64,000 nucleotides of DNA, from the NCBI GenBank assembly GCA_000165345.1, contig CM000435.1, positions 448,001 to 512,000 of the forward strand, written 5' to 3'. Positions 7,637 through 42,194 of this stretch are shown piece by piece (positions within the stretch are counted from its first letter, which is position 1; each line of letters opens with the position of its first letter). A program made the position numbers and the translations under genes. The notes below the pieces were generated by a model. The model saw nothing but the letters and a program-made list of their open reading frames with translations, ran no database searches and had not been told where the DNA came from.

Positions 7637-7962
7637 CTAATTAGGAAATTAACATAGAAAAACTATTAATCTTAATCTATTTAGTTATTTTTGTCTATTT
7701 TTACACTTAAATGTTTCAATTCCCATCTTGCCTGTATTTAGTTAAGCAAATCATATAGAAAATTATTTATTATTGTTCAAGCAAATAATCGCAAAATAAA
7801 ATATCATATTCAATCATTCATATGATTATCTATGTTCCTAGCTTTAAATCTAATCAATTAATTGTTTCATGGGGGAATACTGGTAGCTCTGTGACATTAT
7901 TGTTGCTATTAATCATACTCTATTTTCCAGGTTTTAAGTTAGTAAACTTTTATTCTTTCTTT

Positions 7963-8738
7963 CTACCTTTCCTCTAAACTTACCACTAATTTATTAGATC
8001 CCAAGTGTTGGCAAGGCTTTTGTAACATCTGCTCCCTCTCATCTCTCCATTGCTGAACTCGAGTAGAGATATCTGAAAAGATTTGCTGAAGTCTAATTTT
8101 GTGGCCTGGAAGCCAAGTTTTATTTGAAAACTTTTCAATTTCGTCAATATCCTTTGGTGTTATTGTACAAAGGGCTTCAAGCTGCAAATTCAATTCAGTT
8201 TAAATTGTTAAAACGACCAAAAATAAATAATTTGAGGGAAAAATATTTCTTCCTCTAATTTTTTGAAAAACTTACCGTATCAAATCCTGCACCAATAAAG
8301 TCACCTGTAATTTTAGAGTTAATAAATTGTGATCTAAAGAAATCTATTACTGCAAATCTTTCCTGCTCAAATTCATATTCTAAAAAGGTTTTGAATTTAT
8401 GTTTAATTAAATTTAATATAAATAGTTAAAAAAAAAAAGATAATTGGTTGCATGCAAACACCGGTATCAATTTTTTTATTGCATGCAACTTACAAATTAC
8501 TTACCAGCATTCCAAATTCTTGAAAACCCCAAAAGATGCTCTCCATAATTCTTACACATGAAATCTACTATAAAATATGGGATATTTTCAGGATCTGATT
8601 CATCAAACTCCTTTAAAAATGTTTCCAAAAATCAATATTACAATATTAAATATTTAAATTTTGTCATTAACTTACCTGAAGCAACCTCTCGGTTATCTTT
8701 TCCATAGCAATCCTTCTAGCTGGGAATCCCTGTTCCAT
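7963..8738 (-). CDS. four-exon gene, 163 aa, with SAM-like C-terminal domain. join(complement 8676..8738, 8505..8610, 8276..8379, 7963..8181)
   Basis: Exon 1 encodes MEQGFPARRIAMEKITERLLQ, donor CAG|GTAAGT. All three introns are GTAAG...YAG (65, 125 and 94 nt). Frames connect without stops. Last exon equals ORF-track 7963..8193. C-terminal ITPKDIDEIEKF...LPGHKIRLQQIF resembles SAM-domain helices (LTEEDLKELGI..LGHRKKIL). Confidence 0.5.
8448..8488. promoter_or_regulatory. two copies of TTGCATGCAA, 21 nt apart, inside intron 2 of the SAM-like gene
   Basis: ggttgcatgcaaacaccggtatcaatttttttattgcatgcaactt. GCATGC at 8451-8456 and 8481-8486. Confidence 0.4.
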
Positions 8739-8826
8739 TTTTACACTACTTTAATAAAATCTGTGCCTTTTTTTGCTTCAAAATTTTTAGGAAAATTAAA
8801 AAAAAAAAATACAAATAAAAAATATT

Positions 8827-8838
8827 GTGTGCATGCAC
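8827..8838. promoter_or_regulatory. palindrome tgtGCATGCaca about 90 nt upstream of the SAM-like gene ATG (minus strand)
   Basis: Perfect 12-nt palindrome in the 5' flank. Confidence 0.4.
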
Positions 8839-8909
8839 ATGAAATATTTGTATGCGACCCTTGAATATAAAGTAATTATGAAAGTAAAATTTCAACTCAA
8901 CTTTTGCCT

Positions 8910-11900
8910 TTAGATGCGTTTTTTGTGTTTGTAATGATGAGAATGAGTATTGTATGTTTGTTTCTGTTGATTTACGTTAACATTTGAGCTTATATTGCAT
9001 TGATTTCCTACACACTGAGAATCATAAGTTACAATTGCTTCAGTTTTCACTTGCTTAATACATTTTTCTCCTTCTTCCGTGAAACCCTAAAAATTGTAAT
9101 GAATTTAAATTAATTATCACAAAAAAAATTGATTATATTTTCTTTAACTTTTTTTAACTTACAATTGGACACCTAAACTTTGCCTGAGCAAATCTTAAGC
9201 AATGATTCTTTTTTAAAATTAACCCTGGTGGACAAATTCTTTTGTGACCTGAGTACTCAATCATAATACATTTATTTCCGGCTTCTACAAATCCTTTTGG
9301 ACATCTTGAAATCGGGTCAAGATATATCTTATTTTCACATGTATCATTTGGACATTCCTTCTTTAACATAGAGAAACATTGTCCATTTACCATCATGGAA
9401 TCTCTTGGACAGGAATTTACCGTGGAATGGTATTTTTCCCAAACACAAATTGCTTGATCTAGTTTATATCCATTAGGACAACTAACCTCAGGTTCTACAA
9501 CTTTCTGAGTTTTACAATCCTTGTGTTGACAAATCTTATCTTTATAAAGTACACACTTATCTCCACTTAGAATATACCCTTCAGAGGGGCAAATCATATC
9601 TTTTGGAACAATCTCGGATTCCTTACAAGTGTTTCCATTAACTAATTCTGTTCCATTTGGACAAACTTTATTGGGAGTTATTGTTTTCAATTCTTCACAA
9701 TTATTGTTTTGACATTCCTTGACTGAGTAAGTGAGACAACTTCCATTAGAAATAATAGATCCTTTTGGACAAGAGATTTGTCCATTATTAAATAGTTTTT
9801 TCGTGCAAATTGGTCCTCCGTAGTTCAAATTTTGAGAGTTCTTTTGGAATCCAGAAGGACAACTTAAGACTGGGGGGAAAGTTTCTTGGGCTAAACATCC
9901 TCCTCTTGGACAAATCGACTCAACTTCTCTAATACAATAAGAATTCATAAGATTTGTTCCAAGGGGACATTTCAATTGAGGAAGATGATGAACTCTTTTT
10001 GAACAATTTCCTCCAGGGAAAAGTGAATACTGATTAGGACACTCAATAATAGGAGGAAAATGAACTTTTTTCTCACATTGATTATTCAAACATTCCTTAT
10101 AGACATACTTGGCACATAAATCATCCTGAATAGTGAAATCCTTGGGACAAGTAAGAATAGAAGGACTTCTTTTGATACTTTCACATTGATTTCTGGAAAT
10201 CAAAGTTCCTTGCTTACATGTAATTCTTGGTGGAATTGAAATAGTAACTGAGCAGTTTCCTCCTGAACATTCTTTAGATACCTGGTGAACGCATTGATCT
10301 CCTACTAATTTGAACGGTTTAATACATTTCAAAATTTGAGGTCCAATATTAATTTTTTCGCAAAGTTTGGTTTTTGAGTTTAGGGTTTCATTCTCATCAC
10401 ATTTAAACTCTGGAGGCTCTTTATGAATGATCTCACAATTACTATATGAACAAATCTTAACAATTCTTTCAATACAAATTTGTTGATTTGCACTAGAAAG
10501 TTCTCCTCTTTCACAGGTTTTTTCTGGAAAGACTTCATGCTTAAATATACAAACCCCATCTTCAAAAACAAATCCTGGAGGACAAATTCGTATTGAATCG
10601 ATAATATTTCTCAAAGTACAACCTTCTGGAGGACAAATTTTGGTAGTTACTTGAATACAATTTCCTTCTTCCATAATATATCCCTCTTCACAAATTAATT
10701 CTGGAGCTTTTCTAACAATAGAGGCACATTTATTATCTTCAGTCATACTAGAGCCTGGAGGACAAATGTTAACTTTTGGGATCATAAATTCCTCAAAACA
10801 CGTTTCCAGGGTTTTTGTATGGTCTGAGCAGATTCTTGTCATTGGAAGATGTTCTTTCTTCATACACTCTTTTCCAATATTAATTGATCCCTGTGGACAG
10901 GAAATCTTTGGAGGAAAAGCCTCAGTTCTAGTACAAGTTTTATGATTTCTTATGGCTTGAGAACAAATTCCTGAGTTTCTTTGGCCATAAAATCCAAGAT
11001 TAGAAGTATTTATGGTATTGACTCCACTTCCACAAGGAACAGGAACAATACTTACCTCAGAACAATCATATTCAACCAATTTTTGGCATTGTTTGATCTC
11101 ACTCAAATAATATCCCTTGGGACATTCATAGGAAACATCTATAAAACTCTCAACCAGACAGGAATCTCCAATTTTAGTTCCTTTGAGACATTTATATTCA
11201 AGAGGAAGAGGCTTTCTTCCTCCACACATTCCTGAATCAAGTCCAATAGTTCCTTCTGGACATTGAGGTTTTGAGTCTGAAATATTAATTTGAACACAAT
11301 CTCCATATTTTCCTTCCCTTCCAAATCCTTCTGGACAAAAAGAACTAGGTTTTGAGGTCTTAAAGCATTCATCTCCGTTATCCAAAAATCCAGGAGGACA
11401 AATTTTACTTCTTTGTATTGTTTTATGACAACTCATATCTAATTCATTGATTTCATATCCTACTGGACAATTTAACTCTCCCTCAGCTCTTTTCTCTTTT
11501 ATACATTTATTTTCTATTAAAGAATATCCTTCTGGACAATTTGATTTGGCTCTAGTTTCTATAATACAGAAATTCTCATTTGTCGAATCTTCTCTAGATC
11601 CTTCTGGGCATATTTTTGGAATAACTTCAGTATAAATACATTCTCCTAGTGAATTCAAGGTACTGGGTTCCTGACAAACCAAATCTGGAGATCTTGTAGT
11701 AATTTTTGTACACTTTTGTGTCTCAGGATTATATTTGTATCCTTCAATACATTGCTTTTCCGGGGATTCTATAACTGAGCAATAACCTCCAGAATCTAAA
11801 GAATTCAAAGGACATTTTCTTTTTGAAGTATTTTCACTAGTTAAAATACAAACAGAGTCAGATAATTCTGAACCTGAGGGGCATACTGTCTCAGCTGGAG

Positions 11901-41865: not shown

Positions 41866-42194
41866 TTTTGGGACGCCAAGTTCCACTTAAAATATCAGTT
41901 ACTTTACCTATTAAACACACAAATCTACAATTCCCGCTACTACTTTAATTCCTTACTTTTCTATTATGTCATTAGTCTTTTGAACAAATATTTTTTTATT
42001 GACTTTAAGTATACGTCTACAAAATGTCCATATTAGAAATATGTTAATATAAGAAAAAGAATACAGAATAACAAATAAATCTTTACTAGAATGACTTAAA
42101 ATACAAGGATAAACAATTATAAATGAGTAGTACAACATATCTTGCTGCTAATCTTCACTCCAGTTTTTACCTTGTCACCATTATTATAATTTTT

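Follow-up and report, generated by a model that had tools for sequence, protein, structure and literature searches.

AP2 Motifs and Intronic Elements in Apicomplexa

Little is understood of how Cryptosporidium regulates its genes, and motif surveys have so far been confined to upstream regions. A documented element is the AP2_1 motif of C. parvum, TGCATGCA, whose GCATGC core is enriched upstream of genes and bound by ApiAP2 proteins (PMC3734150, PMC4117751), as the earlier note on the DNA treated here had stated. In protein-binding microarrays this motif is bound in vitro by cgd2_3490, cgd1_3520, and further C. parvum AP2 domains (PMC3734150, PMC4117751); cgd2_3490 and cgd1_3520 are the orthologues of PF14_0633/AP2-EXP of Plasmodium falciparum (AP2-Sp in P. 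berghei). Another motif of C. parvum is GCACAC, known as AP2_2. Here, we describe AP2_1 copies located inside an intron. They were found in a stretch of 64,000 nucleotides (nt) of GenBank assembly GCA_000165345.1 (contig CM000435.1, positions 448,001–512,000 of the forward strand), hereafter the window, within intron 2 (8380–8504, minus strand) of a small gene at 7854–8738 which, as judged by sequence comparison, is the Cryptosporidium orthologue of the apicomplexan inner-membrane-complex (IMC)/pellicle protein SIP/CBAP, hitherto not annotated as such. Positions 7738–11738 of the window are 100% identical to chromosome 7 of C. parvum BGF (CP141124.1).

The copies at the SIP locus share with the published AP2_1 sites the identical palindromic core, the enrichment in non-coding DNA and the presence of a promoter copy 80–230 nt upstream of the ATG. 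The promoter block also contains an AP2_2-like GCACAC. On the other hand, two of the copies are intronic and lie downstream of the start codon, whereas the published Cryptosporidium analyses dealt with upstream regions only, and the constrained intronic copy is joined to an invariant sequence not described before, TTGATACCGG. Another comparison is offered by promoter-proximal intronic enhancers and intron-mediated enhancement, since here too a conserved block with the factor sites of the promoter is found in a 5′-proximal intron, less than 300 nt from the ATG; nothing comparable has been documented for Cryptosporidium. Finally, the intron of the P. falciparum var genes, a bidirectional promoter of long non-coding RNA (lncRNA), is likewise an apicomplexan intron with promoter-type elements. 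However, the var intron is about 1 kb long, is a proven promoter and comes from a family of clonally variant genes, whereas the SIP intron measures 125 nt and lies in a single-copy, housekeeping-type gene.

A Conserved Block in Intron 2

Orthologous loci from 11 Cryptosporidium species were compared, and the six species of the intestinal clade (C. parvum, C. hominis, C. meleagridis, chipmunk genotype I, C. ubiquitum, and C. canis) were aligned; conservation values given below refer to this six-species alignment. In C. parvum, intron 2 contains two identical TTGCATGCAA decamers at 8448–8457 and 8479–8488, separated by 21 nt (ACACCGGTATCAATTTTTTTA) that include CCGGT, in agreement with the earlier note. 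The two sites start 31–32 nt apart, about three helical turns, and together span +251 to +291 from the ATG, i.e., outside the upstream region. A local duplication was discarded as the source of both decamers, there being no similarity outside the 10-mer. The 3′ decamer (8448–8457, in the sense of the transcript) is part of a conserved 23-nt block, TTGATACCGG-TG-TTTGCATGCAA (8448–8470, minus strand), of which the invariant TTGATACCGG occupies 8461–8470. Across the six species the block reads as TTGATACCGG followed by (TG/CA)TTTGC(A/T)TGCAA, and 20 of the 23 columns of TTGATACCGG-NN-TTTGCATGCAA are invariant, against 26% of intron columns overall. Permutation gave p = 0.00045 for an invariant run of 10 and p < 5e-5 for the best 23-nt window. 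In fact, between the stop of the neighboring COWP2 gene and the splice-site and stop-codon neighborhoods, the only invariant non-coding runs of at least 8 nt are TTGATACCGG and a 17-mer of the promoter. Outside the block, the introns are 42–60% identical among species, and the block is still recognizable in C. canis, in which the rest of intron 2 is 44% identical to that of C. parvum.

The two decamers are not equally constrained. The 3′ copy is perfect in five of the six intestinal-clade species and carries a single change in the sixth, and it is found in none of the five species of the other clades. The 5′ decamer (8479–8488, +251 to +260 from the ATG) is perfect in C. parvum and C. hominis, matches 9–10 of 10 bases in C. 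meleagridis depending on the alignment, and is replaced by GTGCATGCAA in chipmunk genotype I, by CTGTATGCAA in C. ubiquitum, and by the degenerate GCATGGCAA in C. canis. Conservation of the decamers relative to the exons had been set out as the check on their significance, and the 3′ decamer stands up to it, as part of intron 2 is constrained in the six species. The 5′ member decays in C. ubiquitum and C. canis, and the conserved intronic unit is TTGATACCGG plus the 3′ decamer and not the decamer pair. In C. meleagridis, the 3′ copy is mutated (TTGCTTGCAA) and the 5′ copy is kept, and the reverse is true for C. ubiquitum and C. canis; therefore, there is at least one perfect TGCATGCA in intron 2 of each of the six species. 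Among the 11 species, GCATGC in intron 2 is confined to the intestinal clade and is absent from the C. bovis/ryanae and gastric clades. C. bovis and C. ryanae have three to four AP2_1-like sites upstream and none in the intron, and the intestinal clade has about two upstream and one to two intronic, so that AP2_1-like sites appear to change position within the locus at a roughly constant number. A metagenome scan for the 23-mer (TTGATACCGGNNTTTGCATGCAA) returned 0 matches, and thus neither additional species nor any sign of a dispersed repeat.

The Promoter Element and the Motif in the Window

The same core is found in the promoter of the gene, where a palindrome had also been noticed from the letters alone. 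The 12-nt palindrome TGTGCATGCACA lies at 8828–8839, corresponding to −101 to −90 from the ATG (8738, minus strand), about 95 nt upstream, and is conserved in 11 of 11 species. It belongs to the 17-nt block CATGTGCATGCACACAA (8825–8841), in which the AP2_1 core and the AP2_2-like GCACAC overlap; the six intestinal-clade species carry this block without any change, at −94 to −99. All 11 Cryptosporidium species have TGCATGCAC upstream of the ATG. In C. bovis and C. ryanae, the promoter motif takes the form CATGTTGCATGCATGCACAC and is found at about −220; in C. andersoni, C. muris, and C. serpentis, it is AAATTGCATGCACA, at about −80, adjoining E2F-like boxes. Also invariant in the six-species alignment is a degenerate second copy, GCATACA (8849–8855, minus strand), located 7 nt upstream of the promoter 17-mer in transcript sense, or 14 nt start to start. 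In the window, the whole spacer that separates the stop of COWP2 from the ATG of SIP (8739–8909) measures only 171 nt, because the conserved last exon of COWP2 (9086–8910) ends at 8910.

The motif is overrepresented in the window. TGCATGCA occurs eight times, against 0.58 expected, and TTGCATGCAA four times, against 0.12, and no shuffle reached either count. Seven of the eight TGCATGCA copies are non-coding, although non-coding DNA makes up 19% of the window (binomial, 7e-5), coding DNA having been approximated by long open reading frames (ORFs) plus the exons mapped at the SIP locus (81%). The copies at 8449, 8480, and 8830 are all TGCATGCA and match the AP2_1 consensus [T/C]GCATGC[A/G] (PMC3734150). 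Elsewhere in the window, five non-coding copies lie in upstream spacers, 90–490 nt from an ATG, several of them beside E2F-like GGCGG/GGCGCC boxes. For example, the copies at 42194, 45439, and 60564 have such boxes (TTTGGCGGC, TTCCCGCC, and TTGGCGCC) within about 10–30 nt, and in the gastric species TTCCGCGGGAAC and TGGCGCAA come after the SIP promoter motif (around 2918–2960 of loci L004, L011, and L012), which suggests a recurrent pairing of AP2_1 and E2F sites. Another observation is that the motif occurs in two extended flavors, the perfect palindrome TTGCATGCAA at four sites (8448, 8479, 18915, and 60563) and TGCATGCAC at three (8830, 42194, and 45439); the SIP intron uses the first and the SIP promoter the second, and the two may be read by different AP2 proteins.

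A Proposed Regulatory Module in the Intron and Its Alternatives

Intron 2 probably contains a DNA element with a regulatory role, and not a folded RNA, and we lean toward reading this element as a lineage-specific, promoter-proximal, intragenic cis-regulatory module set in an ancient intron. According to this proposal, CATGTGCATGCACACAA, which precedes the ATG by about 95 nt, would be the core promoter element, kept across the genus, and the ancestor of the intestinal clade would have gained a second module in the pre-existing intron 2, some 250–290 nt downstream of the ATG. This module would consist of TTGATACCGG-NN-TTTGCATGCAA together with a less constrained TTGCATGCAA located 31 nt upstream. 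As regards protein binding, an effect on transcription and the direction of that effect, we infer that the module would act at the DNA level as an intragenic cluster recruiting ApiAP2 factors that bind TGCATGCA, that GATACCGG would be bound by a putative partner factor, and that the module would strengthen transcription from the very short upstream promoter of 171 nt or set its timing; intronic and promoter sites together would form a homotypic cluster. A site on double-stranded DNA is favored because the full palindrome is conserved and not the hexamer of one strand. In addition, the switching between species of which decamer is kept is the turnover typical of redundant transcription-factor sites, and thus counts for a regulatory module.

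Several points weigh against this proposal. Given seven sites in 12.3 kb of non-coding DNA, two sites within 31 nt have p ~0.10 and three within 382 nt p ~0.08; because the close pair is only mildly unusual at the local motif density, the weight of the evidence is carried by conservation and not by pairing. The intronic element is missing from 5 of the 11 species, and is therefore inessential to the gene. As for the putative partner site, GATACCGG matches no published Cryptosporidium motif, occurs elsewhere in the window just once, in coding DNA, and was discarded as a known AP2 microarray motif, since the text of PMC4117751 holds no CCGG-containing motif. No intragenic enhancers have been described in Cryptosporidium, and a review from 2025 uses neither the word “intron” nor the word “enhancer.” Finally, a role of the same bases at the RNA level, as a splicing signal, is compatible with the sequence. 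A bolder claim, which we advance tentatively and with some doubt, is that intron 2 would be the first recognized intragenic cis-regulatory module in the genus, in which an ApiAP2 site and the new partner motif GATACCGG would form a clade-specific composite, placed in an intron whose position predates the Cryptosporidium–Plasmodium split.

Such a splicing signal is unlikely, but it has several points in its favor. The block might be a distal branch-point region (UUGAU…) or a UGCAUG-type intronic splicing enhancer serving a long intron, as intron 2 has twice the median length of the introns of C. parvum (61 nt), a species for which no branch-point consensus is known (PMC2483917). In intron 1, TTGAT is likewise conserved as a core some 25 nt before the acceptor. 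In intron 2, the block is followed by a poly-T tract, and all six species lack AG from the block to the 3′ splice site (an AG-free stretch of 108 nt in C. parvum, the AG frequency being 0.056 per dinucleotide in non-coding DNA). However, introns 1 and 3 are AG-free as well (59–66 nt), which makes this zone non-discriminating, a branch site needs about 5–7 conserved bases against the 23 found here, the block lies 68–90 nt from the acceptor with plausible branch sites (TTAAC, TGAC) nearer to it, and complementarity to the GUAGUA box of U2 is weak. The AG-free stretches preceding the acceptors measure 59 nt in intron 1 (8611–8671), 108 nt in intron 2 (8380–8489), and 66 nt in intron 3 (8182–8249), and might reflect either distal branch points or a general purging of cryptic acceptors from short introns. 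UGCAUG is the classic intronic RBFOX element of animals, and the intron 2 RNA has it twice, with conservation above that of the flanks; RBFOX proteins are regarded as metazoan, and C. meleagridis breaks UGCAUG in the constrained copy. Another point against a splicing signal is that the conserved unit at the SIP locus is an entire palindrome of 8–10 nt, matching the DNA motif also found in non-transcribed promoters and spacers.

It is quite unlikely that the intronic sites act as an internal promoter with a transcript of its own, such as an antisense lncRNA over exons 2 to 1, as in the var intron of Plasmodium. Antisense transcripts are found for about 10% of C. parvum genes and make up most of the lncRNAs, the intronic motif is the promoter motif and is orientation-independent, and its distances to the flanks resemble typical distances between promoter sites and the ATG. 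On the other hand, among the entries listed from the supplement of Li et al. (2021), CPATCC_0007580 appears in the mRNA cluster table alone and no lncRNA from either strand of the gene appears, which weighs lightly against this possibility. A sense transcript starting in intron 2 would lack a usable in-frame ATG; an N-terminally truncated protein from an internal start was likewise rejected, the first in-frame ATG occurring only near the end of exon 4. The partial C. hominis model P0011, which begins within intron 2, is an ORF-extension artifact due to a 1-nt indel that opens the frame.

A third alternative, absence of function, is improbable. The decamers might be chance copies of an abundant AT-compatible palindrome and the conservation of the block a mutational cold spot, as the p value of the close pair and the five species lacking the element would allow. 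Nevertheless, the degree of invariance of the block (p < 5e-5) stands against an intron that is otherwise poorly conserved, and the substitutions observed leave at least one perfect site in every species. Finally, it is highly improbable that the decamers pair as a hairpin of 10–11 bp with a 21-nt loop acting as RNA, or that the intron hosts a small RNA, because, although the minimum-free-energy fold of intron 2 includes a decamer–decamer stem and 23 intronic non-coding RNAs have been reported in C. parvum (PMC9465071), the fold has z = −0.42 with 61 of 200 shuffles folding as well, the nine pairs of the alignment fold show 0 compensatory changes (covariation term, +0.53), C. meleagridis has an uncompensated central mismatch, C. 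canis has lost the 5′ arm, the invariant TTGATACCGG would fall in the loop, Rfam has no match near the gathering score in 7700–9200 (a permissive E-value gave only noise), and conserved C/D or H/ACA boxes are absent. A small nucleolar RNA host intron was discarded on this last ground, TGATGA being found in C. canis only. Thus, of the two possibilities raised in the earlier note, an intragenic regulatory element or a structured intron, the first is likely as far as a conserved element is concerned and the second finds no support.

Structure of the SIP Gene

The gene is labeled as “uncharacterized” in GenBank (cpbgf_7001795, CPATCC_0007580, and CPHLJ_7g1795), and the main texts of the literature searched contain nothing on it under cgd7_1795, cpbgf_7001795, or CPATCC_0007580. 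It had been taken for a gene with four exons and three introns at 7963–8738. The three introns are real, as they run from GTAAGT to AG, are much less conserved than the exons and contain stop codons if retained; a fourth intron and a fifth exon must be added, the gene lies on the minus strand, and its end is at 7854, the stop at 7963 belonging to a four-exon model that is not conserved. The gene thus has five exons and four introns, all of the latter starting with GTAAGT and ending with AG, and its unspliced RNA is rich in stop codons. Exon 1 (8676–8738, 79% of columns invariant) begins with the ATG at 8738 and is followed by intron 1 (8611–8675; 65 nt, GTAAGT..AG, phase 0), exon 2 (8505–8610, 82% invariant), intron 2 (125 nt, GTAAGT..AG, phase 1, with the motifs), exon 3 (8276–8379), intron 3 (8182–8275, 94 nt), exon 4 (7984–8181, which in the four-exon model continues to the TAG at 7963), intron 4 (7920–7983; 64 nt, GTAAGT…TACTAAC…AG), and exon 5 (7854–7919), which encodes SMINSNNNVTELPVFPHETIN and then a stop. 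GTAAGT starts 84% of C. parvum introns (PMC2483917). Because about one quarter of C. parvum genes have an intron and the genome holds about 1,370 introns (PMC9465071), four introns in 0.9 kb are unusual.

Translation of the spliced five-exon coding sequence is identical to GenBank protein P0005 (178 amino acids, aa). The public models P0004, P0005, P0006, P0008, P0009, P0011, and P0012 conflict at the 3′ end (160–178 aa), and most of them lack intron 4. The five-exon model is the conserved one, because C. bovis and C. andersoni share the tail encoded by exon 5 (SM..NVTELPV..), and no two species have the same read-through tail as predicted by the four-exon model P0004 (163 aa, stop at 7963); in addition, 75% of exon 5 columns are invariant against 27% for intron 4. 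Two other candidates were rejected. A 27-nt in-frame cassette exon in intron 2 (TTGCATGC…ATACCG) would leave an upstream intron of 15 nt, and its length of 27, 28, 28, and 24 nt between species does not conserve the frame. A hairpin in intron 3 (8231–8256, minus strand, GAGG…CCTC-type) has one apparently compensatory pair and a consensus energy of only −2.5 kcal/mol, and is unconvincing.

The Encoded Protein

An exhaustive profile search with the 178-aa protein recovered 77 relatives. The best named match is the “stripes inner membrane complex protein” of P. falciparum (E 3e-45), and a BLASTP comparison with PfSIP gave 45% identity over 139 aa (E 1e-51). Further relatives are found in Cardiosporidium, Eimeria, and Porospora, and in the dinoflagellates Oxyrrhis, Breviolum, Cladocopium, Alexandrium, and Amoebophrya. 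The Cryptosporidium protein shares with SIP/CBAP (TgME49_267500 and PfSIP) the whole conserved core of about 140 aa, and its gene shares two intron positions with the Plasmodium gene; by contrast, the protein is shorter, having no N- or C-terminal extensions, and the gene has two extra introns. In fact, introns 1 and 2 fall at the same codon and phase as both introns of Plasmodium SIP (1681–1883 and 1990–2138 of the Plasmodium locus L013), and introns 3 and 4 have no counterpart there. GCATGC is absent from 4 kb at the Plasmodium SIP locus. Localization of SIP/CBAP at the IMC transverse sutures and at the apical and basal rings is known in Toxoplasma only.

As for domains, a Pfam scan of the 178-aa protein gave no match, SAM models included; just 2 of 42 family members reach E ~3e-3 with the Pfam SAM models, and a PDB profile match to the SAM domain of EphA2 has E 0.03. 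Residues ~75–135 show the five-helix arrangement of a SAM fold in an AlphaFold2 (AF2) model built from 42 sequences, which replaced an unusable AF2 model from three sequences (predicted local distance difference test score of 46). This modeling indicates a SAM-like, potentially polymerizing domain in a protein family described as lacking recognizable domains.

The Neighboring COWP2 Gene

The 3′ end of COWP2 (cgd7_1800; 8910–9162 in the window, minus strand) presents a conflict between gene models. The uninterrupted ORF ends at 9154 and encodes 1378 aa, and its final two codons, together with the stop codon, overlap a GTAAGT donor; use of this donor defines a 76-nt intron (9162–9087) and a last exon of 58 aa (9086–8910; GFTEEGEKCIKQVKTEAIVTYDSQCVGNQCN…). 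The resulting model of 1434 aa is supported because the reading frame of this last exon is intact and conserved in six species. A published tagging design used the stop of the 1378-aa model.

Biological Significance

The motif itself is known, and the intronic sites add a new instance of it in an unusual location, which would gain interest if they proved to be a functional intragenic enhancer. A phylogenetically footprinted cluster of AP2-type sites in an intron offers a small, concrete, and testable case, made up of a 23-nt block in a position that looks non-essential. As by-products, an “uncharacterized” gene is placed in the SIP/CBAP pellicle family and its five-exon model is settled. The case could show whether intragenic DNA aids transcription in a genome with promoters of 171 nt, and whether regulatory content explains the retention of introns. 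If intron 2 is indeed an intragenic module of this kind, it would suggest that some of the few introns in this streamlined genome have persisted, or lengthened, as carriers of transcriptional control elements.
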